Assembly (NCBI GenBank): GCA_963794945.1
Contig: CAWCFT010000001.1
Location: forward strand, 96,001-160,000
Length of the DNA: 64,000 nucleotides
From: Endomicrobiales bacterium
GTDB taxonomy: Bacteria > Elusimicrobiota > Endomicrobiia > Endomicrobiales > CAWCFT01
Direction of reading: 5' to 3'
The position numbers and the translations under genes are program-made. The notes under the pieces are model-generated. The model made no database searches. It worked only from the letters and a program-made list of their open reading frames with translations, and was not told where the DNA came from. This document shows, piece after piece, positions 2,379 to 50,855 of this stretch; position 1 is the first letter of the stretch; the number at the start of each line of letters is the position of its first letter.

Positions 2379-4101
2379 TTATTGCGCCGTCGCCAGGACT
2401 TCTTCGAGGCTGCTACGGCCCTGTGTGACTTTTATAAGGCCGTCCTCGAGCAGCGTGCGCATCCCCTGCTCGCGCGCGAGATTCCTCACCGGCCCCGCGG
2501 CTATTTCTTTTAAAAGCAGCGCCCTCATCTGGTCCGTCATCATCAGAAGCTCGTGTATGCCGGCCCTGCCCTTGTACCCCGTCTTGTTGCAGTTATCGCA
2601 GCCGCGCCCCTTGAATATGGTAGCATTGGCGGTGTCTATATTGTGCTGCGCAAAAAATTTCTGATGTTCATCGGTAATCTCCACCCTCTCCTTGCATTCC
2701 GGACACACGCGCCTTACAAGCCTCTGGGCAAGTATGCACTCTATAGATGAAGCGATAAGGAAGCTGGGTATCCCCATTTCATGCAAGCGGGCCACGGCTG
2801 ACGGGGCGTCGTTCGTGTGGATTGTGGAGAACACAAGGTGGCCTGTCATAGCGGCTTCCATGGCTATCTGGGCGGTTTCCTTGTCTCGTATTTCTCCGAC
2901 CATTATAACGTCCGGGTCCTGCCTCAGGAACGCGCGAAGCGCCGACGAGAAATCGAAACCTATCTCTTGTACAACGTTGACCTGTATGATGCCGGAAAGG
3001 TTATATTCGACAGGGTTTTCGGCTGTGAGTATCTTAGTATCGGGAGAGTTTATCGAGTTAAGCGCGGCGTAAAGCGTGGTTGATTTTCCCGAGCCGGTCG
3101 GCCCGCAAACCAATATGAGGCCGTAAGGTTTTTGAAGCGATGCCTTGAATTTCTCAAGTGTGTCCGGCAGGAAGCCCAGCTTGTCCATATCTACTCTTAC
3201 GGAAGCGCGGTCGAGTACGCGCATGACGCACGCCTCACCGAACACCGTTGGCACGATGTTAACGCGGAACTCCACCGGGTTGCCTTTCGCCATTACCTGT
3301 ATACGCCCGTCCTGCGGCCTGCGGCGCTCGGTGATGTCCATCTGTTCCGTCATTATCTTGAGCTTCGCAATTAGAGCGTTTCTAAACGAGAAGGGCACCT
3401 GGAACGGCGCTTCCCTAAGCATGCCGTCTATGCGGTACCTGACAATAAGTTTGCTTTCAAAGGGTTCTATATGTATGTCCGAAGCTTTCTGCTGAAGGGC
3501 GCCTAGGATGATGGCGTTAACAAGCTTTTCGACTTCGGGAGCGGACGCGTCGACTTCGGTGACTTCGACTTTTACTTCCACTTTCTCCAGCTTCATATCT
3601 TCGCTGGCGGCCTTTAGCTATGCCGTCCATCATCTTTTCAACGGAGACGCTGTCTGCGAGGCCGTAGGCTTTGTCTAGAACTTTGTTGATGTCTTCGGGA
3701 AGGGTAAGGTAAGCCTGAACTTCGAAGTTGGTCCTGAGCTGTATATCTTCTATAACAAAAAAATCCCGTGGATCGGCCATAGCGACAAAGAGGACATTTT
3801 CTTCCTTAACGAAAGGCACTGCCCTGTGGCGCCTAGCGGCCGCTTCGGGGATGACTTTTGCGACTTCGGGGTCTATCTCTATTTCATCGAGGTTAACCGC
3901 TTTGACTCCCCATTCCTGGGAAAGCGTGCGCAGGAGGTCAACCCGGCTCATCATGTTGAGCCGGACAACGACAGACTGCAGAGGTTCAGATGTTTTTTTG
4001 CTTTCTTCCTGGGCTTGCTCAAGCTGCTGATCAGTAAGCAGTTTGTTATCGGTGAGTATTTCTTTGACCGTTTTTCTTCTGACGGGGCTTTTGGAAGCCA
4101 T
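2379..4101 (-). CDS. pilB: Type IV pilus assembly / T2SS ATPase PilB/GspE (frameshift near 3600)
   Basis: MshEN-like N-terminus in ORF 3517-4101. ORF 2379-3596 has ASDIHIEP, Walker A GPTGSGKST, LRQDPDVIMVGEIRD and a tetracysteine motif. Confidence 0.85.
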
Positions 4102-28556: not shown

Positions 28557-28782
28557 AGATTTTACCTCCAATAAATTCTGATTTGACTTACGTAATCAAG
28601 GAGCCGCACTCCCCCCTACAGGATATATATTTGCGCCGCCAGTTCCAATTACCTTTTTCCACTTTTCACTGACCTTTTTACAGGTTAGCGCTTGTCATCG
28701 AATGAGAAGTTTTGCAGTAAAAAATAAAAAAAGACAGATAAATTATATCTATCTTTTTCCCTTTTAGTCCTTTTTAGCAAAG

Positions 28783-29193
28783 TTAGGGAAGTTTGACGCC
28801 GTCATCACATTTACCATCATTCGCAAAATACTGAATGTAATTCTTTACCGCTTCGGCCATTTGCGCCATATCGGCAGGCTTTGGGATATAATCCAACACA
28901 TATTTCTTTAGGCCTTCTTCATTCGGCCCTGCCGATGTGGCCGCTGTGAGCAGGACAATAAGAACATTCTCAGTGAAGCCTTGTTTTACTATCTCCCTTA
29001 TTGTATCCCAACCGTTCAGAACAGGCATGTATAGATCCAATAATATTACCCCAATAAATCCATTCCTGATCTTTTCAATACATTCCTTACCGTCGCAAGC
29101 TACAATAACATCCATTCCCTCTTGCCCAAGGTAACGGGATACTGCATCCCGTATCCCGGGTTCGTCATCAACGATCATGATCTTTGCGGTCAT
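28783..29193 (-). CDS. Single-domain response regulator
   Basis: IMIVDDE, LLDLYMP, LTA and YIPKP. Confidence 0.9.
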   Translation of the reverse strand: MTAKIMIVDDEPGIRDAVSRYLGQEGMDVIVACDGKECIEKIRNGFIGVILLDLYMPVLNGWDTIREIVKQGFTENVLIVLLTAATSAGPNEEGLKKYVLDYIPKPADMAQMAEAVKNYIQYFANDGKCDDGVKLP

Positions 29194-39899: not shown

Positions 39900-40457
39900 C
39901 TACTTCAACTCCGCGTCCAGCAGCGCGATGTACTGCTCCTTTGTCATCCCCATTTTACTAAGCTGGGCATCAACCATGGGCGCAAGGCCGGGGTTTTCCA
40001 TTGACGCCTTTATCATCTGCAGCGCCGTCTTGTTGCCCGTCAGGCCGAGGCTCTTTATGGTATCGGCAGGCGGCAAAGTAGCCGCACCTTGCGCGGGAGC
40101 CCCTGCATTGACTGCCTTGATCTTCCCGCCCTTGCCCGCGGAAGAGGAGGGCCCTGTTGAGTGTTTTTTGTGCGTGTTCGGCTTCAATGTCGCCTTCACT
40201 TCAAAGCCCGTATCTCCCACATTTTCAACCTTGAGAACCATAAGTTTATACGCCGCTCCCATGCTTCTCGCAAGCTTCGCAAGTTTCTTCACTTTACCAC
40301 CGGCTTCTTCCCTGCTTTTTGCTTCAATATCAAGCTTCAACCCAACCCCCGGCTTTGCCTTCAACTGCCCATAAACTTGCTTCAAAAACAGCTTCTCTTC
40401 CGCGCCGCTGTCAGCTTCCTTTGCCAGCTCAAACTCCCCTACGATTTTCATAGCCAT
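39900..40457 (-). CDS. Hypothetical protein
   Basis: 185-aa ORF with AAGGAGG RBS. Confidence 0.65.
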   Translation of the reverse strand: MAMKIVGEFELAKEADSGAEEKLFLKQVYGQLKAKPGVGLKLDIEAKSREEAGGKVKKLAKLARSMGAAYKLMVLKVENVGDTGFEVKATLKPNTHKKHSTGPSSSAGKGGKIKAVNAGAPAQGAATLPPADTIKSLGLTGNKTALQMIKASMENPGLAPMVDAQLSKMGMTKEQYIALLDAELK

Positions 40458-40519
40458 TGTGGCCTCCTTTCAGCCCTGGTCCGCCTTCCCCCATCAGAAC
40501 TGTGCCGCAAATATTATGC

Positions 40520-41165
40520 TTCCAATCCAGCTTCCGTTTTGCTTACATCTGTCTTCGCGAGGCCGCCTCTGGCGGGCGTGGCGATCTTGATGTTCGCCTT
40601 CCTTTCAGCTTCAATTCAAGATTCCAATTTGCTTCCAGTTAAGCTTCATGTTTGCTTCCAATTCAGCTTCCATTCTGCTTCCATCAAGCTTCCCTTAAGC
40701 TTCCTTTTTGCTTCTAGTTTAGCTTCCATTTCGGCTTCTATTTTGCTTCCATTCGTCTTCGCGAGTCCGCCTCTGGCGGGCGTGGCGATCTCGATGTTAG
40801 CCTTCCTTTCAGCTTCCATTCAAGCTTCCATTTTGCTTCCAGTTAAGCTTCATTTTCGCCAACATTCCGCGCATTAAACTCCTTCGCCCAGCAAGTCAAA
40901 TCCGCCGTGGTAGGCAGGTGGTATAAATGTTTGTCAAACTTCCTCTCCATTGATGGGAGAGGATTGAGGTGAGGGTGAGATTGACCAACTTTCAGCTTCC
41001 TATTTGCTTCCAATTAAGCTTCCGTTTTGCTTCCATCTGTCTTCGCGAGTCCGCCTCTGGCGGGCGTGGCGATCACGACGTTAGCCTTCCTTTCAGCTTC
41101 CATTCAAGCTTCCTTTTTGCTTCCAAATCAGCTTCCATTAATGCTTCCCTATCAGCTTCCCTGCC
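40520..41165. repeat. Three imperfect copies of a GTCTTCGCGAG-CCGCCTCTGGCGG-GTGGCGATC unit embedded in AGCTTC-rich short repeats
   Basis: Core copies start near 40551, 40756 and 41039. Confidence 0.8.
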
Positions 41166-41744
41166 GGCAGTTTAAGCCCTTCCTATCAATGAGCACTGAA
41201 GCCCCTCAATCTTACACAAATAGCCCTGAAATCCGCCTTCTTGTGTTGCGGAATAATCATTCATAATACAACAACTTAATGCATTTGATGTTAAACCTGG
41301 TTAGTGAAAGCCTGACATCGTTTAGTTGTAAAGTCTTTGCCCGCGAACGACGAGCAACGAGATACGAACGACTGCCTCTAGGTTTTGCACAAATATTTAT
41401 AGCAGATTTTTTGAATATTTCAAGGTTTTGAGAGTTTTGAGCGGGAGGGTTAACCCCGTTAGAGGAAACGGGCACTTTGCGAATAAAGATGGCTACATTA
41501 CACCACCATCTAACAGCATTGATTCAAACCACCGACAGGAACCGGCGGCATCCTCTAACGTGGTGAAGATTAACACTGCGCAAGCAGAAACATTAGTGAA
41601 GTCGAGTGGCCTGACATCGGAAGAGTTATGTCTCTAATTCCCACAATAGGTTCAACAAGTCAAGCCTGATAATATGAAAGCAACCTCCATCTAGTTTTGT
41701 TAAACTTATTGTATCGAGCAATAAGACAAAACGAGGAGGTTGCC

Positions 41745-42770
41745 ATGAATTATGTTGGTGTAGACTTGCACAAAGAGCGTTCTTGGTTTTACGTGACGAA
41801 CGAGCAGGGCAAACGGATTGACAGCCAGAGTATAGCAAATTTGCCAGAAGTGTTGCGATCATATTATAAAACGCTCCCACGACCATTTACACTTGCAGTT
41901 GAAACGACTTACAATTGGTACTATTTCGTTGATCTCGCCGAAGAATATGCTTACAAGGTGTATCTTGCGAATTCGTACGAGCTGAAAGCATTTGCAAAAC
42001 GAAACAAGAAAACAGAACAAGATAGATGCCCGGCTTATAGCCGATGTGCTCCGTAAGGGCTATTTACCTACAGTAGAGCTGCCAAACAAGAAGATACGAG
42101 CTATTAAAGAACTGTTGCATTGCCGGATGAGCATTGTCAGTGAACGAACGCGGAACACAGCACGGTTAAAGTCACTTCTTGATCGCCATGGACAGATGTC
42201 AACGGGTGACTATACTTCAATGAAGCAATTGAACGGTATTGCGGTGAACAAATTATCTGAACCGTGCCGGATTGCCGCAGAAAACTGGATTGAGCAAATA
42301 GGCGCTTTGAATGCGCGTGAAAACCGTATCGGGTGGCAACTACATGCAATAGCCGAAAGTGATCCCGACGCACGGAATCTTGAAAGTATTCCTGGGATCG
42401 GCAGTTTTAGTGCATTGCTTATTAAAAGCGAGATAGGCGATATTAGCCGTTTTACAACATTTAACCGCCTCTGCGCGTACGCAGGCCTTGCACCGAGAAC
42501 ATTCCAGAGCGCCGACAAAGAATATCACGGTTCTTTAAATAAGAATCGGCGTAAACACCTACAGTGGATATTGATTGAGGCAGTTCACCATTTTTCAAAG
42601 AGAGCGTTGAACGAACAGAAAAGTATGAAGCTATAGCCAAACGGAAAGCGCCCAACGTGGCGCGAGTGGCTCTTGCCAGAGATTTATTGAAAATTGTGTA
42701 TCGAGTTTTGAAAGATAAGCGGCCATATTATATACGGACTACGGCGTCCCTCGCGCTCAATGGTGCCTGA
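41745..42770 (+). CDS. IS110 DEDD recombinase/transposase (one +1 and one -1 indel relative to copy 2)
   Basis: VGVDLHK, AVETT, IDA and GLAPRTFQS motifs. Confidence 0.9.
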
Positions 42771-42900
42771 AGTGTCCGCCGCAAGGCTGACAGCTTCAAC
42801 AAGTCTGATTAGCGGAGGGGCGTCGCCCGATTCTATCATGCAGTCCGCCAAGTGCAGAGCTGCCAATAGGTGACTGAAGTCCGGATATTTTCGGAGCTTC
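42740..42900 (+). ncRNA. Predicted bridge/seek RNA of IS copy 1 (boundaries approximate)
   Basis: Internal loops carry segments matching the target and the donor junction (see findings). Confidence 0.7.
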
Positions 42901-43041
42901 TTACGATACAAAGCGGGCGAACGGCCAAAGAACTTGTTTAACAGAACAGATCAGTAGTTAGAAACTACTGCGGAGATACTTTTTGTCACCTTGACTTTTT
43001 CTTTCATAGGTGACACCGTTCATCGAATGGTAGTTTGGGGA

Positions 43042-43124
43042 ATCGCAAACTTGGAACAGTCACCTCAGGCAATCGCCGGCCTCTTGACGAGACCCGCCAG
43101 TTGTTTTTGGCGGGCCTGACTCCA
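43042..43124 (+). repeat. Diverged inverted copy of the ~110-bp repeat ending GGCGGGCCTGACWCCA
   Basis: TCGCARACTTGGAACAGT...TTTGGCGGGCCTGAC is shared with the copies at 47949 and 48936. Confidence 0.8.
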
Positions 43125-43151
43125 CTTAATATTTTACTAACACCAATTTCT

Positions 43152-44258
43152 TTAGATTGCCAATACATTTCTTAAAGCTGAATCGATTTCATCCCAATCT
43201 TTAATCCAGCAAACAGCAACCCCTAAATGGTGAAGACCGCATTCCATAATATCACGCAACCATTTTTCTTTCGGTAAAACATTAACCCACACATGGTATG
43301 CAGGAATTTTAGCGCCTCCTGAAATAACGTCAATGTCATTAATATTATTTTTATGTGTCCAAGCCAACCATTTTCTGATATTTAAATCGCTTAGCGAATG
43401 CCCTATTATCAGCATTCTTGTTGTTTGAGCATAATATAGAAAAGTCGACTGAGTCCAGGAAGACATGTTACCAGCTATATCCAAATAATCTTTCTCTCGA
43501 AATACAAGTTTATCTCTTGAATCTCTTCGATGTTCCTTTAAGGCTACTTTAACGTTAGGCGCAATCGCACCATGACTATAAATGAATGGAATGCTCCCAT
43601 GCCATACATATTGTGACCTAAATACACTTTGATATTTCCTCTTCGGCCTCACGTGTTGCCCTATTTTTGTTTCATGTTCATTAATTGCTAGTACATCTGT
43701 AATTGTATATAAAAGAGTATCTGCATTAAAACTGAGTACCGCTGTTGGGGCTTTGGGTGTATCAACTAAGTCGTTTAATATCCGAGAAAGACTAAAGATT
43801 GTCGTTTGCTTAAATTCTTTTTCCAAAAATACATATAGCTTTTCCATTTGACGTAGTTTTAAATATCTCGGATCACTCAATGCTATAATCAGCTCTTTTG
43901 TTACATTATATGTGGTAGCCTTTTTGAATAGATCATTATAAAGAGCTGACCCAAGAATTGAAATAAACTTTCTCGCATCAGTGCTACTGGAGTCTATAAT
44001 ATTTTCGGCTGCTTGAATATAGGCATCTAGACCCCAGCCCGTATTTACACAAGCTTTTTTAAATTCATCAAATGCTATTTTTGTCTTAAAAGCATCCTGC
44101 AGTACATGCCAAGTCAATTCACTCCAATTAGGAACTAACCCAGTAGAAGTTCCGGCTCCAATGCATAAAGTCCAAGGAACATTGCTTACGCTTCCCCTAT
44201 ATTTAGTTTCCAGTCCAAAGAAGGACTCTTTCAATGGTCGTACACATTTGACAAGCAT
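43152..44258 (-). CDS. SIR2-like domain protein (putative NADase defence effector)
   Basis: CIGAGTS...PNW, SFNAD, HG and IIGHSLSDLNIR motifs in AT-rich DNA. Confidence 0.8.
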   Translation of the reverse strand: MLVKCVRPLKESFFGLETKYRGSVSNVPWTLCIGAGTSTGLVPNWSELTWHVLQDAFKTKIAFDEFKKACVNTGWGLDAYIQAAENIIDSSSTDARKFISILGSALYNDLFKKATTYNVTKELIIALSDPRYLKLRQMEKLYVFLEKEFKQTTIFSLSRILNDLVDTPKAPTAVLSFNADTLLYTITDVLAINEHETKIGQHVRPKRKYQSVFRSQYVWHGSIPFIYSHGAIAPNVKVALKEHRRDSRDKLVFREKDYLDIAGNMSSWTQSTFLYYAQTTRMLIIGHSLSDLNIRKWLAWTHKNNINDIDVISGGAKIPAYHVWVNVLPKEKWLRDIMECGLHHLGVAVCWIKDWDEIDSALRNVLAI

Positions 44259-44318
44259 TGTTCGCTCCTTAAAATAGGAACTTTGACTTTAGTGAAAACG
44301 TTAGCCTGACACCATTTC

Positions 44319-46535
44319 TTATTCTTCTTGCCTGTTATTTTTTTGTATTGTATCTAAAATATTGTGTGTGTGCAACCGCAATTTCATTGCCTCTTCCGCT
44401 GTTAATTCGTCAGAGTGAGCAATTTTATTTCTTATCGATTGAAGCTCAATAAACTTCGAGTAAAATAGTTCCTTACTTGAAAATACTTCTTTAAACACTT
44501 CTTCCCAATTATCTCTCCTCGCAATTATTTTATAGTAATCCGGAAAATCAACTGATATCATTTTTGATTTTTCTTCAGGTATTGCCCATGGATATATATT
44601 TTCTTTTTTACTGTGCCTGTCTTCGGCATTTTCCTTCACATCTGAAGGTATCCTTTCATTCCACCAATTACTACTAATACCATTAAGCTTAGTTTCAACA
44701 AATGTTCTTAAATTGACCTCCAGGTCTTTCAAAATATTATAAGGCTCTGACTTTTGGTAAGCCATTTTCTTTCTCTTCTCAATATCCTTAATATATTCTA
44801 TGGCAAACAACTCATTTGACTTATTAATTGTTTCGATGATCATCAATGCAATGTTTGCTCGCCCAGCTTCATTACTTGTCATTGCACGGTATTCTTTAAT
44901 TTTTGAATAATTATTTAAAAAGAATGCAATAATCGGCTCTTTTATTAAATCTTCTACTTTTCTCTTATCCCATACACCTTTGAAATATTGCAACACCTCA
45001 ACCAAAACTCTTGTGAATATATTGAAACCATTGTTATGAAGAATAAAACCTTTTTTCCACTCATGATATTCCTCCGCAAATGAATCTATGAGGGTAAAAT
45101 ATTCATTAATGACTTTCTCGGGGAAGACAAGAATACTATCGGGAAAAGGAATCGTTTCGCTTACTTCTCCATTTTTTTGGTATAGGTTATACGTTCCCTT
45201 AACAAGCGGATCAATAATCTTTCTGTCATATAAAGTATTGCATATGTTAGCTAATTTTAGGGGATATGCCGATGCTTTGCGTTGTTGGTGTCTAGGAATA
45301 AGAATTTTACCCTTGAAATATCCAGTTTTATTAAGTTCTTTTGCTATTTTGGTTATTGCACCCTGAATAGAATTCGGATCAGTTTGTGAAAGCAAATCCC
45401 ATAACAAATTTGGATCTACAGATTTCTGTTTTTGATTAATATCAATAAAATCTCTAGCTTGTTGTTTTTTTCCAATATCTTGATATGCTGTAACACTAAT
45501 ACAATATTTTAGTTTCTCGGTATTAGCTTGGGTGTAGCCATAAATTCTATGTTGCCCATCGATGATCCAAACGCTACCATATATTTTGGGGATAGAAAGT
45601 ATCCCAAACGCCATATTGGTATCTTGCAGAAGTAATCCAGTATTTTTTGGCTCAAATGTCACTTGCTTTTCAAAACTACAAACCACATTGTTTTTAAAAA
45701 ACCCTCCATTGTCAATGTATTCAGCTATACCAGGCTCTTCTGTTGTTCCAAAAATACGTTTTTCATTAATAAATCTCTGGTAAGCATCTTCATTTCCAGA
45801 TTGAAGCCTGAACACGTAAACTAAATTCAATAGTTTTTCAACTGGTATATAAAAACTAAATATTTCTTGGTCTCCAATTGTTACTTTAAAACTTGGGACT
45901 TTATAATCAGCACTGCCTTCCTCATCTTTAATATACTTCGGTGTACAATTCAATTCTTTAAGAACATAATGAAATGTTAAAGAGCCAATTACTTTATATA
46001 ATCTTTCAAGAACATCAATATATCTACTGCACCACAAATATACATCGTTGACTCGTGCAGTCTCTATATCTTTAGGATCAATGTCAATATCATCAACCAC
46101 AAGAACATATCTTACCTCATTATATTTTGATCCGTATTTCTCAGCAATTGCCTTATTAATCTCTATTTGTTTTCCCTTAAAGATATCAATTTCATTTGCG
46201 ATACTTTTTTTCTTAGGCTGATCAGCACTTTTACATTCGACCACAAGCAACGTTCCATTCTTACCACCAACAGCATCTATTTGATATCTACCAAGCCAAG
46301 AATTATAGCCAGATTCAATATCATCAAAACCCAATATTTCAAGCAGAATTCTTACTCTTTCTTGAAATAATTCCCATTTTTTAAATTTTTTCTCTAAAAT
46401 AATCTTCCCATTATCAGTTTTTTTAATTAGGAAACCAACTTTCTTAAAAGATTCTATTTCATCCTTATTTTCCAACTCAATCTCAACTAATTTATTCTTT
46501 TGAGGACTAGGCACTTTCCATTTACTTTGCTTCAT
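44319..46535 (-). CDS. PD-(D/E)XK nuclease - DGQHR (DndB-like) - Swt1-like HEPN fusion protein
   Basis: QIDAVG..LLVVECKS, YQR, IIDGQHR, FIDIN.KQK, LEVNLR..WW and RNKIAH. AAGGAG RBS before the ATG at 46535. Confidence 0.85.
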   Translation of the reverse strand: MKQSKWKVPSPQKNKLVEIELENKDEIESFKKVGFLIKKTDNGKIILEKKFKKWELFQERVRILLEILGFDDIESGYNSWLGRYQIDAVGGKNGTLLVVECKSADQPKKKSIANEIDIFKGKQIEINKAIAEKYGSKYNEVRYVLVVDDIDIDPKDIETARVNDVYLWCSRYIDVLERLYKVIGSLTFHYVLKELNCTPKYIKDEEGSADYKVPSFKVTIGDQEIFSFYIPVEKLLNLVYVFRLQSGNEDAYQRFINEKRIFGTTEEPGIAEYIDNGGFFKNNVVCSFEKQVTFEPKNTGLLLQDTNMAFGILSIPKIYGSVWIIDGQHRIYGYTQANTEKLKYCISVTAYQDIGKKQQARDFIDINQKQKSVDPNLLWDLLSQTDPNSIQGAITKIAKELNKTGYFKGKILIPRHQQRKASAYPLKLANICNTLYDRKIIDPLVKGTYNLYQKNGEVSETIPFPDSILVFPEKVINEYFTLIDSFAEEYHEWKKGFILHNNGFNIFTRVLVEVLQYFKGVWDKRKVEDLIKEPIIAFFLNNYSKIKEYRAMTSNEAGRANIALMIIETINKSNELFAIEYIKDIEKRKKMAYQKSEPYNILKDLEVNLRTFVETKLNGISSNWWNERIPSDVKENAEDRHSKKENIYPWAIPEEKSKMISVDFPDYYKIIARRDNWEEVFKEVFSSKELFYSKFIELQSIRNKIAHSDELTAEEAMKLRLHTHNILDTIQKNNRQEE

Positions 46536-46676
46536 TTTACTCTCCTTTGATAAAATAACGGTGTCACCTATGAAAGAAAAAGTCAAGGTGACAAAAAGTA
46601 TCTCCGCAGTAGTTTCTAACTACTGATCTGTTCTGTTAAACAAGTTCTTTGGCCGTTCGCCCGCTTTGTATCGTAA

Positions 46677-46837
46677 GAAGCTCCGAAAATATCCGGACTT
46701 CAGTCACCTATTGGCAGCTCTGCACTTGGCGGACTGCATGATAGAATCGGGCGACGCCCCTCCGCTAATCAGACTTGTTGAAGCTGTCAGCCTTGCGGCG
46801 GACACTTCAGGCACCATTGAGCGCGAGGGACGCCGTA
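46677..46837 (-). ncRNA. Predicted bridge/seek RNA of IS copy 2
   Basis: Reverse complement of 42740-42900. Confidence 0.7.
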
Positions 46838-47832
46838 GTCCGTATATAATATGGCCGCTTATCTTTCAAAACTCGATACACAATTTTCAATAAATCTCTG
46901 GCAAGAGCCACTCGCGCCACGTTGGGCGCTTTCCGTTTGGCTATAGCTTCATACTTTTCTGTTCGTTCAACGCTGCTCTTTGAAAAATGGTGAACTGCCT
47001 CAATCAATATCCACTGTAGGTGTTTACGCCGATTCTTATTTAAAGAACCGTGATATTCTTTGTCGGCGCTCTGGAATGTTCTCGGTGCAAGGCCTGCGTA
47101 CGCGCAGAGGCGGTTAAATGTTGTAAAACGGCTAATATCGCCTATCTCGCTTTTAATAAGCAATGCACTAAAACTGCCGATCCCAGGAATACTTTCAAGA
47201 TTCCGTGCGTCGGGATCACTTTCGGCTATTGCATGTAGTTGCCACCCGATACGGTTTTCACGCGCATTCAAAGCGCCTATTTGCTCAATCCAGTTTTCTG
47301 CGGCAATCCGGCACGGTTCAGATAATTTGTTCACCGCAATACCGTTCAATTGCTTCATTGAAGTATAGTCACCCGTTGACATCTGTCCATGGCGATCAAG
47401 AAGTGACTTTAACCGTGCTGTGTTCCGCGTTCGTTCACTGACAATGCTCATCCGGCAATGCAACAGTTCTTTAATAGCTCGTATCTTCTTGTCTGGCAGC
47501 TCTACTGTAGGTAAATAGCCCTTACGGAGCACATCGGCTATAAGCCGGGCATCTATCTTGTCTGTTTTCTTGTTTCGTTTTGCAAATGCTTTCAGCTCGT
47601 ACGAATTCGCAAGATACACCTTGTAAGCATATTCTTCGGCGAGATCAACGAAATAGTACCAATTGTAAGTCGTTTCAACTGCAAGTGTAAATGGTCGTGG
47701 GAGCGTTTTATAATATGATCGCAACACTTCTGGCAAATTTGCTATACTCTGGCTGTCAATCCGTTTGCCCTGCTCGTTCGTCACGTAAAACCAAGAACGC
47801 TCTTTGTGCAAGTCTACACCAACATAATTCAT
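46807..47832 (-). CDS. IS110 DEDD recombinase/transposase, 341 aa
   Basis: GVDLHK, VET, KTDKIDA, IPGIG and YAGLAP..QS. Confidence 0.95.
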   Translation of the reverse strand: MNYVGVDLHKERSWFYVTNEQGKRIDSQSIANLPEVLRSYYKTLPRPFTLAVETTYNWYYFVDLAEEYAYKVYLANSYELKAFAKRNKKTDKIDARLIADVLRKGYLPTVELPDKKIRAIKELLHCRMSIVSERTRNTARLKSLLDRHGQMSTGDYTSMKQLNGIAVNKLSEPCRIAAENWIEQIGALNARENRIGWQLHAIAESDPDARNLESIPGIGSFSALLIKSEIGDISRFTTFNRLCAYAGLAPRTFQSADKEYHGSLNKNRRKHLQWILIEAVHHFSKSSVERTEKYEAIAKRKAPNVARVALARDLLKIVYRVLKDKRPYYIRTTASLALNGA

Positions 47833-47948
47833 GGCAACCTCCTCGTTTTGTCTTATTGCTCGATACAATAAGTTTAACAAAACTAGATGGAGGTTGCTTT
47901 CATATTATCAGGCTTCACTAATTACACTAACTCTCTGTCAACCTTCAA

Positions 47949-48059
47949 AAATGGTGTCAGGCCCGCCAAAGATAACCGGTGGATCTCGCCAAGAGGACGG
48001 CGGCTGCTTGAGGCAACTGTTCCAAGTCTGCGACTCCGACTTGACTTATTGTACTTATC
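47949..48059 (-). repeat. ~110-bp direct repeat downstream of KilA-N
   Basis: Aligns with 48936-49046. Confidence 0.88.
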
Positions 48060-48083
48060 CTCCAAACCACACTAAAAGCTTTA

Positions 48084-48899
48084 TTATTTCAGACTTTTAA
48101 TCGAATTACTGGAAAGAAGCGAACGCATTTGTGCAATAGCGATTTCGTTCAGCTTTATTATTCTTTCCGATTGTTTCATCCCCTGGCGTATCAGCACAGA
48201 GTTTATGCTTTCAAGGTTGCTGAGCACTACTAGTTGTTCGAGAGTTGCACAATCGCGGATATTGCCCTCTTTGCCCGGATTTTCCGAACGCCACGCAGCC
48301 GCGGTTTTACCGAAAAGAGCGACATTAAGCAGGTCAGCTTCTGAGGCGTATATATTATTTACTTGTTGTTAGCTCAATTCTTTCGGCATAAGATTTTCTT
48401 TTATCGCGTCCGTATGAATGGTATAATTAATTTTGGCAAGAGTGCGTTGAAGGTTCCAACCAAGTTTTTTCGAGGATATTTCTTCGTCTTTTAAACGCTG
48501 AAATTCTTTTATCAGATATAGTTTGAATTCCACTGAAACCCAGGAAGCAAACTCAAAGGCTATATCTTTATGGGCGTACGTGCCCCCATACCTTCCCGGT
48601 TTTGAAATAAGGCCTCGCGCTCCGGTTTGTTCTATCCACTGCTTTGCGGTAAGAACAAAACTGTTGATCCCTGCCTGTTTTCTAAACCCCTCGAATTCGG
48701 TGGGTTTAAAAAGCGGGTTGTTAAGCTGTTCCCATATGCCGAGAAATTCTATTGTATTGCGGTTTCTAAGCCAATTCTGGATTATATAGTCTGTTCTGGC
48801 AGGATCTTTATAACGCGCTATATCTGTAATACATATATAATCATCCCGTTCTTTTGAGTAGAAAGACACAACAGTGTCCAATACTTTAATGTGGCTCAT
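48084..48899 (-). CDS. KilA-N domain DNA-binding protein (one in-frame TAA at 48369-48371)
   Basis: DYICITDIAR, NWLRNRNTIEFLG and GRYGGTYAHKDIAFEFASW. The same frame continues YASEADLLNVALFG after the stop. Confidence 0.88.
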
Positions 48900-48935
48900 T
48901 TCAATTCTCCTTTTATGAGCTAAATTCTCCTCAAT

Positions 48936-49046
48936 AAATGGTGTCAGGCCCGCCAAAGATAACCGGCGTACCTCGCCAAGAGGCTGGCGGCTGCCTGAGG
49001 CGACTGTTCCAAGTCTGCGACTTCGACTTGACTTATTGTACTTATC
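48936..49046 (-). repeat. ~110-bp direct repeat upstream of KilA-N
   Basis: Aligns with 47949-48059. Confidence 0.88.
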
Positions 49047-49104
49047 TTTAACTCAGTGCCCGGGCTCTCTAAATTCACTTACTTATAACATACCAATGGG
49101 ACGC

Positions 49105-49249
49105 AAAAAAACCACAGCTATCCTATGACAGCGGTGGTTTGAAGATCAATTCCCGATATACTATCAGATTCGATTTGGCCCATTTTCCATATCCCCTAAG
49201 ATTTGGCAGGCTATAAACGGATTCTAGCTCTTTGAAGTTTTTATGTCAA
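49105..49249 (-). promoter_or_regulatory. Sigma70 promoter, short uORF and terminator facing the defence island
   Basis: TTGACA-N17-TAGAAT (49249-49221), uORF MENGPNRI (49190-49164) and an AAACCAC...GTGGTTTTTT hairpin. Confidence 0.6.
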
Positions 49250-49261
49250 GTTATTCAGCTT

Positions 49262-49777
49262 TTAGAACTTTTTTGAAAGAGTAAATCCCAGCGGGCACAT
49301 TTGCGTTCCGAGGGACAGTTTTAATCTGCCGGAATCCCTGTTGTACAGATCTACCGCCCTGATCTGGGCATCCTGGGCCGCTATTCCCGCGGCGCGGCTA
49401 TTGATGGCGCCTATTATGCCTATGGCCAAAAACCCCAGCCCTTCCGCCTGCCTTGTCGCGATACCGTTGCTGTCAGTTATGTCCCTGCTGCTTAAATACC
49501 TGTTATATCCCGTGATCAAAAACACCGCGCTGAAGATTCCGTCGAACACGGCCGAAACCCGCCTTTCGCCGCACAGATGTAACTGTTCAACAGCCGCGGG
49601 AGACTTCTCTATGCAGAGCTTACTGAAATCATCCAGCGTAAGCAGCTTTCCATCCACATTCACAAGATTTTGCCGAAAGCCGTCCCTCGAAACAAAATAA
49701 GCCGGATACCCCTCGGCGAACGCTACGTCCTTAAAACACAATAATACCAGACAAAATACAACCATCTTAATTTTCAT
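49262..49777 (-). CDS. Hypothetical exported/membrane protein
   Basis: Signal peptide, two hydrophobic segments and a C-terminal F. Confidence 0.6.
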   Translation of the reverse strand: MKIKMVVFCLVLLCFKDVAFAEGYPAYFVSRDGFRQNLVNVDGKLLTLDDFSKLCIEKSPAAVEQLHLCGERRVSAVFDGIFSAVFLITGYNRYLSSRDITDSNGIATRQAEGLGFLAIGIIGAINSRAAGIAAQDAQIRAVDLYNRDSGRLKLSLGTQMCPLGFTLSKKF

Positions 49778-49791
49778 TCTTGTCTCCGATT

Positions 49792-49821
49792 AACCGTTAC
49801 AACCGCGTAGGTTGCAACGGT
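49792..49821. repeat. REP-like palindrome flanking the RAYT
   Basis: AACCGTTACAACC-gcgta-GGTTGCAACGGT. Confidence 0.8.
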
Positions 49822-50477
49822 CATTCCAACAACAAATCTTTTATTTTATGTAATTCCTGCTGATAAGATATTCTGTCTTCCACAAAGTTTTTATATTCAC
49901 CTGAGCTGATCGTGATAAGGTCGCGATGACTGGTTAAATTATTTCTATCGTAAATTCCGCTTAGGTATTCCTTGTAAGATGAGGCCTTCCATGATTCGGG
50001 TTTATCGGTTAATTCGGATGTAACAGGATTTAGATGGACGTATCTTGTTAAATGGAGTAAATATTCGTTTGTGTTGACCAGCACGCTTTTGAACCTGCTC
50101 TCCCATAGAGGCCCTTTTCTTTCGTGCTTTGTATTAAAATATCTAGTATAGCTGTTTAAAACGTTGTTCATGAAAACTGATATTCCTTTTCCAGTGTTCT
50201 GCTTCAACACAAAATGCACATGAGTCGGCATAATACAGTACGCGATTATTTGCACCAGATCATTTTTCGTATCATGGAATCCCATGAAATCAAGTTTATT
50301 TTCTCTTAAAAGCTTGTCGTATCTTGAAAAACTGATATCCGGTTTTTCCTTTTGATAGAACTTTACAGCTTCAAGCATCCTGAAATAATCCGTCTCCGTA
50401 TTAAATATAATGTACCGGGCTATACTTCTCGAAAACACGTGGTATACTTGTCCCTCAACTAACAAATCCTTTCTCAT
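49821..50477 (-). CDS. REP-associated tyrosine transposase (RAYT, IS200-like Y1 HUH)
   Basis: YHVFSR, YCIMPTHVH (HUH), LWESRF, YVHLNPV and W..SSY. Confidence 0.9.
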   Translation of the reverse strand: MRKDLLVEGQVYHVFSRSIARYIIFNTETDYFRMLEAVKFYQKEKPDISFSRYDKLLRENKLDFMGFHDTKNDLVQIIAYCIMPTHVHFVLKQNTGKGISVFMNNVLNSYTRYFNTKHERKGPLWESRFKSVLVNTNEYLLHLTRYVHLNPVTSELTDKPESWKASSYKEYLSGIYDRNNLTSHRDLITISSGEYKNFVEDRISYQQELHKIKDLLLE

Positions 50478-50490
50478 CCTGATCCCTTTT

Positions 50491-50521
50491 AACCGTTACA
50501 ACCTACGCGGTTGTAACGGTT
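50491..50521. repeat. REP-like palindrome flanking the RAYT (inverted copy)
   Basis: AACCGTTACAACC-tacgc-GGTTGTAACGGTT. Confidence 0.8.
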
Positions 50522-50855
50522 ACTTCTCAAGTTTAAGAATGTTGTAAAGGCCGTCACGCAGTTGTTCTTTGTCTACGGCGGTGCCGAACCTTATGCCGGC
50601 AACGTAGTAGCCGTTCCTGGAGGACACGTGCATTACCTTTCCCAGGGCGTGCTCAAACACGTGGTCGGTTCCCAGCGTGAAGCTCAAGTGGATCAATTCA
50701 TTGTCCCTTACCGGAAAGCGCGTTTCTATCTGCAGGCCGCCCAGGCTTACGTCGTAAATAACTCCCCATCCCTCGAAATTTTCCCTCTCGTAGAAGCGCA
50801 TAAGCACTGGGATGGAAGCGCTGAACCGGATATTGCTGCGGTATTCTTTTGTCAT
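50520..50855 (-). CDS. PilZ domain protein
   Basis: RxxxR (RSNIR) and DVSLGG. Confidence 0.85.
   Translation of the reverse strand: MTKEYRSNIRFSASIPVLMRFYERENFEGWGVIYDVSLGGLQIETRFPVRDNELIHLSFTLGTDHVFEHALGKVMHVSSRNGYYVAGIRFGTAVDKEQLRDGLYNILKLEK

Follow-up and report, generated by a model that had tools for sequence, protein, structure and literature searches.

Genes for Y1/HUH transposases are found between short repeats of more than one kind. In the REP/RAYT systems (repetitive extragenic palindromes and REP-associated tyrosine transposases, arranged as REPtrons and REPINs; Nunvar 2010, PMC2817692; Bertels & Rainey 2011, PMC3116915; Ton-Hoang 2012, PMC3333891), a single-copy Y1 gene lies between inverted short repeats that are also scattered through intergenic DNA. 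RAYT-like genes with long flanking terminal inverted repeats (TIRs) have been named TIRtrons and their enzymes TIRYTs (Di Nocera et al. 2013, PMC3733652); many of these TIRs share the sequence GGGGWSAS, and the TIR families are "moderately abundant", with many copies in dimers or clusters (PMC3733652). Most TIRYTs belong to subclass 2.1 of TnpAREP and have a C-terminal Bac_DnaA_C-like or helix-turn-helix domain (Quentin et al. 2018, PMC6006769). In this study, we have explored a 64-kb stretch of DNA (the window) from an uncultivated Elusimicrobiota genome (G000; 2.9 Mb, 46.5% GC, 86% complete), in which short sites built on CCTGACAYC separate the genes of a 7.7-kb island (41.3-49.05 kb). The original prediction for this DNA saw in these sites a possible integron-like cassette array. 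Based on our results, we infer, with a probability of about 0.85, that they are dispersed, mostly solo TIR copies of a TIRtron, that is, of a RAYT-like Y1/HUH gene (a TIRYT) between non-palindromic TIRs. The sites are a known kind of repeat and no new integron-like gene-capture system.

Two of the sites are split by an insertion sequence (IS) of the IS1111 type, which belongs to the IS110 family, and the insertion of such elements into repeats also has precedents. IS1111/IS110 elements have been described in REPs (Tobes & Pareja 2006, PMC1525189; ISPpu9, PMC12288879), IS1111 elements in the TIRs of the Tn21 family and in attC sites (Partridge & Hall 2003 and Post & Hall 2009, cited in PMC11187229), and insertion in the IS110 family is guided by a seekRNA or bridge RNA (PMC11187229, PMC11208160).

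A repeat shared by the island and a Y1/HUH transposase gene

The repeat of the island is identical with the TIR of a transposase gene, this type of TIR is conserved around orthologues and further homologues, the sites are intergenic and of low copy number, and the insertion of the IS1111-type element is site-specific and falls in their core. The transposase gene is on another contig of G000 (C15). There, two full copies of the repeat, each of about 30 nucleotides (nt), stand inverted about 960 nt apart with CCTGACACC outermost, and bracket a single gene for a protein of 294 amino acids (aa). Each TIR consists of two tandem 9-mers (e.g. TTAGTGTAG-TTAGTGAAG) followed by a CCTGAC(A/G)CC end of the CCTGACACC type, and the two inverted copies agree at 32 of 36 aligned positions. 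The protein matches Pfam Y1_Tnp (E 3.6e-18) and NCBIfam REP_Tyr_transpos, the REP-associated tyrosine transposase (88.2 bits, cut-off 80); its HUH motif (H60, H62) and catalytic tyrosine (Y119) are invariant in an alignment of five orthologues, and its best PDB match is E. coli TnpArep (4er8, E 5.7e-6). No other full-length cognate gene was found in this genome, which is 86% complete. The original prediction had tied REP-like repeats to a Y1 transposase, and this link holds, as the same TIR flanks the RAYT-like gene of C15. Its statement that no tyrosine integrase is present was true of the island open reading frames (ORFs) scanned and missed the cognate enzyme, a Y1/HUH transposase encoded on a different contig.

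Transposase matches were obtained in 13 of the 31 genomes searched (G000 included). Four other genomes of the order have orthologues with the same kind of TIR. The orthologue of G003 (72% identity) is flanked by inverted repeats of 30 nt, AGTTAGTGAAGTTAGAGAAGCCTGACACCA, that are 100% complementary, the orthologue of G001 (62% identity) by repeats of 28 nt, AATAAGTAAAGCAAGTAAAGCCTGACAC, that are 96% complementary, and the orthologue of G014 by repeats of 33 nt (91%) with an arm ending in ...AAAGCAAGTCTGACACCGGGG. All three sets of repeats end in (G/T)CTGACAC; the orthologue of G016 has the motif on one flank only. RCCTGACACC occurs in 27 copies in G003, against one copy for the reversed control. 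Of 80 homologous loci from many phyla, analysed with a crude script, 61 have an inverted repeat of 14 nt or more in their flanks. Many of the inverted repeats at homologous loci start with GGGGTCAGG, and GGKGTCAGG faces outward in the flank of 31 of the 80 loci (on both flanks in 17), against 1 of 80 for the opposite orientation.

In the window, exact CCTGACAYC was found five times where 0.49 copies were expected, and none of 100 shuffles contained five or more. All five copies are confined to 41311-48948, at 41311 (+), 41610 (+), 44305 (+), 47953-47961 (-) and 48940-48948 (-). Reading of the sequence adds two copies split by the IS and one copy with a single mismatch (CCTGACTCC, 43115-43123), so that five sites of the island are on the plus strand and three on the minus strand; a weak ACTAACACC lies at 43137-43145. 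Several sites are preceded by TTAGTGAA or AAGTCAAG, their orientation reverses across the gene for a DGQHR protein, and a site is present between every pair of neighbouring genes within 41.3-49.05 kb. These sites, the sequences before them, the reversal and the placement between genes had all been described in the original prediction, and our reading of the sequence agrees with it. Its remark that the motif was not seen in intergenic DNA elsewhere in the window is correct for exact copies, which are found in the island alone, and has to be amended for a decayed TIR copy at about 28770-28805 (TTAGCAAAG-TTAGGGAAG-TTTGACGCC), which equals the core of the left C15 TIR except for CC changed to TT.

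At the scale of the genome, the bare 9-mer that was to be scanned for is near chance and not over-represented (62 copies against about 44 predicted from length alone). What stands out is the extended form, with a 9-mer or hairpin context, of which about 25 sites at 12 loci were retained by manual curation of 136 matrix hits. In the extended form, one or two 9-mers of the type T(T/A)AGTNNA(A/G) stand before the motif, as in TTAGTGTAG-TTAGTGAAG-CCTGACACC-GTT and TTAGTTCAA-TAAGTAAAG-CCTGACACC-ATT. Eight of these sites are inside the island, and ORF maps place nearly all TIR copies of the genome between ORFs. Most sites are below the genome median GC of 3-kb windows, from which we draw no conclusion because intergenic DNA is AT-richer anyway. 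In G003, full TIR-like sequences (9-mers plus GCCTGACACC) were also observed within giant ORFs, at 3150-3190 and 12230-12270 of L027 (G003:C13) and at about 3000-3040 of L034 (G003:C15), where they leave very long frames (4780 and 1756 aa) unbroken.

The TIR end, AGCCTGACACC(GT), has the outward-reading form GGTGTCAGG, a variant of the TIRYT end GGGG(A/T)(C/G)A(C/G), and the outward reading GGTGTCAG fits the published GGGGWSAS at seven of eight positions, the exception being position 3 (T in place of G). The short sites show neither self-complementarity nor folding (free energy 0 to -0.9 kcal/mol, z above 0); they are therefore TIRs and not REP hairpins, and it is because of this absence of folding, together with the fit at seven of eight positions, that we have filed the repeat as a TIRtron TIR family. 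As in described TIRtrons, a Y1/HUH RAYT-like gene lies between non-palindromic TIRs with an end close to GGGGWSAS, and TIR copies are dispersed, moderately abundant and in part clustered; the C-terminal similarity to Bac_DnaA_C is sub-threshold here. The differences concern the host, as the name Elusimicrobiota is absent from the accessible text of PMC6006769, the third position of the end (T, not G), and the two tandem 9-mers beside the end, which go unmentioned in the same portions of PMC3733652 and PMC6006769. They also concern the arrangement, since here an array of eight copies separates all genes of a small defence-type island and an IS1111-type element targets the core. With the REP/RAYT systems, our locus shares the single-copy Y1 gene between inverted short repeats and the scattering of the flanking repeat through intergenic DNA. 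Unlike in those systems, the repeat has no hairpin, GTAG is not a fixed 5' tag and the copies number about 25, not hundreds; the CCTGACAYC sites thus lack the GTAG-tagged imperfect palindrome in more than 100 copies by which a classical REP is recognized.

The window also contains, at about 49785-50532, a second and classical-looking REPtron. Its RAYT-like gene of 218 aa (49821-50477, minus strand) matches Y1_Tnp (E 3e-9) and reaches 58.6 bits with REP_Tyr_transpos, below the cut-off; a GTAG-containing palindrome, AACCGTTACAACCGCGTAGGTTGCAACGGT, flanks the gene in inverted orientation and has just these two occurrences in the genome.

In the model that we propose, the TIRYT would spread TIR copies in trans, as has been proposed for RAYTs and REPs, and its C-terminal DnaA-like helix-turn-helix would read the 9-mers. 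Since domain IV of DnaA reads 9-mers, the tandem 9-mers suggest a candidate binding site for the DnaA-like domain, a proposal made from the sequence. The IS could be guided to the core by a seekRNA that its 3' non-coding region encodes. The island itself would be a variable, partly foreign (32-36% GC) stretch, in which repeats and ISs may pile up because insertions are presumably tolerated there.

A number of points weigh against this interpretation. The C-terminal Bac_DnaA_C match of the C15 protein is below the Pfam cut-off (E 2.8e-5; 24.5 against 31.5 bits), the GGGGWSAS end is unlike a DnaA box according to its authors (PMC6006769), and no activity or assay of a TIRYT on its TIR is reported in the accessible portions of PMC3733652 and PMC6006769. 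At least two subtypes of 9-mers occur among the solo sites (TTAGTGNAG; TTAGTTCAA-TAAGTAAAG), against one full-length TIRYT in a genome that is 86% complete. The list of 25 sites depends on by-hand reading of the 136 matrix hits, and the seekRNA guide described below is a candidate picked by eye. Finally, passive accumulation by itself explains neither the crowding of 8 of the roughly 25 sites into 7.7 kb, where each gene pair is separated by one, nor the inserts of about 85 nt in three "long" copies.

The IS1111-type element and the layout of the island

The features of the island are collected in Table 1.

Table 1. Repeat sites, IS copies and genes of the island (positions in the window)
Feature	Position	Strand	Remarks
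Solo TIR-like site 1	41301..41322	+	one 9-mer TTAGTGAAA, then GCCTGACATC + GTT
Solo TIR-like site 2	41593..41618	+	TTAGTGAAG, 8-nt spacer, CCTGACATC
Left half of TIR-like site split by IS copy 1	41642..41669	+	GGTTCAA-CAAGTCAAG-CCTGA (CCTGA 41665-41669)
IS1111-type (IS110-family) copy 1	41670..43013	+	1344 nt; frame disrupted by two single-base indels as compared with copy 2
Right half of site split by IS copy 1	43014-43020	+	CACCGTT (CACC 43014-43017)
"Long" element, copy 3	43039..43128	+	82-84% identical to the other two; hairpin end, then CCTGACTCC at 43115-43123
368-aa gene (SIR2-like)	43152..44258	-	weak SIR2_2 match (23.8 bits, cut-off 24.5); no PADLOC match; GC ~36%
Solo TIR-like site between two AT-rich genes	44289..44316	+	TTAGTGAAA, 7-nt spacer, CCTGACACC; DGQHR stop codon 5 nt away
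DGQHR (DndB/DpdB-like) + HEPN_Swt1 gene, ~738 aa	44319..46535	-	PDC-M34B-like matches; GC ~32%
Right half of TIR site split by IS copy 2	46557..46563	-	CACCGTT
IS1111-type copy 2	46564..47907	-	intact; 357-aa gene at 46807-47880
Left half of TIR site split by IS copy 2	47908..47935	-	one position different from right TIR of C15 transposase gene
"Long" element	47942..48059	-	two 9-mers, ~85-nt insert, CCTGACACC at 47953-47961
KilA-N / PDC-S22-like gene	48084..48899	-	one in-frame TAA at 48369-48371
"Long" element	48929..49046	-	91% identical to 47942-48059; CCTGACACC at 48940-48948; right edge of island
IS target sequence (core form)			AAGCCTGACACC

The two IS copies of the island (1344 nt each, inverted) are 100% identical apart from two single-base indels, at 42016-42017 and 42602-42603, that break the frame of copy 1 and may be assembly errors. 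The 357-aa protein of copy 2 matches Pfam DEDD_Tnp_IS110 and Transposase_20 and bears the NCBIfam name IS110 family RNA-guided transposase. The genome has five copies of the IS, and all five are inserted at AAG(C/T)CTGA^(C/T)(A/T)CC. The sites of three copies have 9-mers, and the other two copies are in look-alike sequence; the idea that the IS110 targets the sites, put forward in the original prediction, is in this respect well founded. The DEDD and Transposase_20 domains, a subterminal inverted repeat of 8 bp (TATGAAAG/CTTTCATA), a non-coding region of about 243 nt downstream (3') of the transposase gene and the site-specific insertion assign the element to the IS1111 group. Described IS1111/IS110 elements likewise combine a DEDD transposase with a subterminal inverted repeat, a non-coding region on the 3' side and strictly site-specific insertion into a multicopy repeat or transposon end; here, the subterminal repeat is shorter than the usual 11-13 bp (PMC11187229) and the target is the end of a TIRYT TIR. 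In the literature searched, we found no report of an IS1111 element targeting a TIRYT TIR.

A candidate seekRNA guide, AATGGTG+CCTGA, lies at 42759-42770 inside a predicted stem-loop (z -1.98). Its AATGGTG is the complement of the right flank CACC(A/G)TT and is followed by CCTGA of the left flank. As RNA, AAUGGUG complements the top strand to the right of the insertion point, and CCUGA after it the bottom strand to the left; the order of a top-strand complement before a bottom-strand match is also that of the IS1111 seekRNAs (PMC11187229). We considered an IS-mediated inversion of 43021-46556, about which the flanks cannot decide because both junctions read CACCGTT. To the left of IS copy 1, the AAGTCAAG context is similar to what the intact long elements have at their 5' end, a mild argument for the order now seen.

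A close homologue of the IS (E up to 1e-30) was found in one of the 31 genomes, G000. An IS110 fragment beside a TIR in G003 (L025) was examined as a further copy and rejected, as it is not a close homologue and the TIR is not split. At this locus (G003:C25, 3613-9721), a 6.1-kb segment lies between two TIRs that face outward just as those of the transposase gene do. Next to the IS110 fragment, it contains genes for a Schlafen AlbA_2 protein, an AAA_14/DUF4143 ATPase and an IS3-type transposase pair, and no Y1 gene; the segment may be a decayed or cargo-carrying TIRtron.

The long versions of the repeat measure about 118 nt, with about 85 nt between the 9-mers and the core, and their three copies in the whole genome are all within the island. 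Their folding z scores (-2.16, +0.58 and -2.43) do not make a convincing case for structure, and Rfam gave no family at gathering score in the window and none at E up to 1 in 41000-49500. At two sites of G003 (L029 and L033), a GC-rich hairpin takes the place of the 9-mers right before CCTGACACC, which is reminiscent of how the three long elements end in a hairpin plus core. On its left, the island is bordered by a dense array of TGCTTCC/AGCTTCC-based repeats at 40517-41160 (19-nt units, 11 times; 138-nt units, 3 times). Read on the minus strand, this array may correspond to repetitive coding sequence that frame errors have interrupted and that continues into the ORF at 39900-40457.

Island genes, gene capture and other explanations

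The SIR2-like gene and the DGQHR/HEPN_Swt1 gene, adjacent on the same strand and AT-rich, may constitute a two-gene defence system of foreign origin. The SIR2-like protein has a match in G000 alone among the 31 genomes searched, and the DGQHR protein, for the first 200 residues or so of which there was no match, in 3 of 401 genomes of the phylum including G000, the other two being distant (30-31% identity); neither gene has a homologue in the 30 relatives searched. The KilA-N gene has a homologue in G003 with 95% aa and 84% nt identity, ungapped over 819 nt. This homology is limited to the gene and ends 24-28 nt short of the flanking long elements. The in-frame TAA of the KilA-N gene is AAA in G003; either the nonsense mutation is genuine or the assembly is wrong at this position.

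Arrays of integrons resemble the island in that single genes are separated by one short site and that IS1111-family elements target such sites. In contrast to those arrays, the sites here have no attC-type imperfect palindrome and a mixed orientation, and there is no sign of a gene travelling with its site. The IntI and tyrosine recombinase families gave no match among the 10 ORFs scanned at 38.6-50.5 kb, the rest of the genome not having been searched for IntI. The integron-like cassette array of the original prediction is not upheld by these features of the sites, nor by the KilA-N homologues of G003 and G014 and the Fic genes, to which we come below.

A gene-capture platform would nevertheless not need attC or IntI: the Y1/HUH enzyme, acting in trans, would excise and insert single-gene modules between two TIR copies and create an integron-like defence islet. 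We consider this unlikely. It would account for the sites that bracket every gene in 41.3-49.05 kb and for the pairs of direct repeats around the KilA-N gene (118-nt repeats, 987 nt apart), the SIR2-like gene, the Fic/SoFic gene of C5 and a toxin-antitoxin pair with a response regulator on C1, as well as for three inward pairs that flank cargo, namely the DGQHR gene, CheB/CheR with a histidine kinase on C2, and two ORFs in a metagenome locus (L060). It would also suit the KilA-N homology with G003, which stops at the gene before reaching the repeats, and the AT-rich DGQHR and SIR2-like genes, which have no relatives nearby. The genes beside sites elsewhere in the genome include SoFic with a Dcm/Vsr pair, an AbiLi/PDC-M38-like pair and a toxin-antitoxin antidote gene, and strong PADLOC matches adjoin the sites at 3 of the 12 loci, a count that stands without a background rate. 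However, other sites adjoin housekeeping-type genes, and phosphatidylserine decarboxylase, a glycosyltransferase and a lipocalin are among these ordinary-looking neighbours. No module of gene plus site was seen twice. The KilA-N homologues of G003 (95% aa) and G014 (62% aa) have no adjacent site, and the Fic genes beside sites in G000 and G003 are just 29-30% identical, which rules them out as a common module. The orientation of the sites relative to the genes is inconsistent, and in G003, a genome with 27 motif copies, the 18 stretches read show pairs and no comparable array. To our knowledge, no Y1 transposase moves single-gene modules in this way. As a working exchange platform, the idea is slightly less likely still. 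The TIRYT, in trans and on single-stranded DNA, would cut two equally oriented sites at their CCTGACACC core and release a circle of one site and one gene that could re-insert at another site. If true, the DGQHR-HEPN, SIR2-like and KilA-N defence genes would be shuffled one by one by an HUH-driven analogue of an integron, and the IS1111-type element would use the same core as a safe landing pad.

The nearest comparison genomes belong to other families than G000. The proteins encoded beside the island match other genomes at 33-56% identity only, with no shared neighbourhood. Neither a metagenome scan with a flanking gene of 268 aa nor a search of the genome collection with the DGQHR protein yielded a relative. 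When metagenome contigs were scanned for an 18-nt TIR stretch, six matching stretches at five loci were obtained, and two unannotated ORFs, next to a Y1 gene, lie between one pair of sites; that contig shares with G000 only a 76%-identical PPDK gene, and there is therefore no synteny to exploit. Six public runs contained at most 0.21 of the sampled words, four of them yielding short, thin contigs without joints, and are neutral on excision and circles.

That the sites could be an operator, promoter element or terminator common to the island genes, unrelated to transposition, is very improbable. Their position within tens of bases of gene starts or ends would fit such a cis-regulatory motif, as would the promoter-like TTGACA-N17-TAATAT directly after the TIR on C15. 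Yet the same 30-nt sequence forms the inverted ends of the transposase gene in at least four genomes, orientation and distance to the genes vary, the sites lack a hairpin followed by a run of T, and copies are also found inside the giant ORFs of G003. An origin of the sites from the IS itself, as footprints or as IS-carried sequence, is suggested by the two island sites that it occupies and by the fact that all five IS copies abut the core. This explanation has next to no probability in our view, as the relatives with this TIR family (G003, G001, G014 and G016) have no close homologue of the IS, the TIRs of C15 flank the Y1 gene without any IS, and the IS ends carry no 9-mers.

TIRtrons in Elusimicrobiota and the annotation of gene-boundary repeats

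TIRYTs and TIRtrons have been named and hardly studied. Our results provide a clean example of a TIRtron from Elusimicrobiota, with an end, GGKGTCAGG, that is conserved around homologues across many phyla. The tandem 9-mers beside this end would offer the DnaA-like C-terminal domain something plausible to bind. An IS1111-type element that targets the end of a TIRYT TIR extends the habit of this group of homing into REPs, attC sites and the ends of Tn21. For annotation, where short, non-palindromic repeats mark the gene boundaries of a defence island, a comparison with the sequences on either side of Y1 transposase genes should precede any proposal of a new recombination system.

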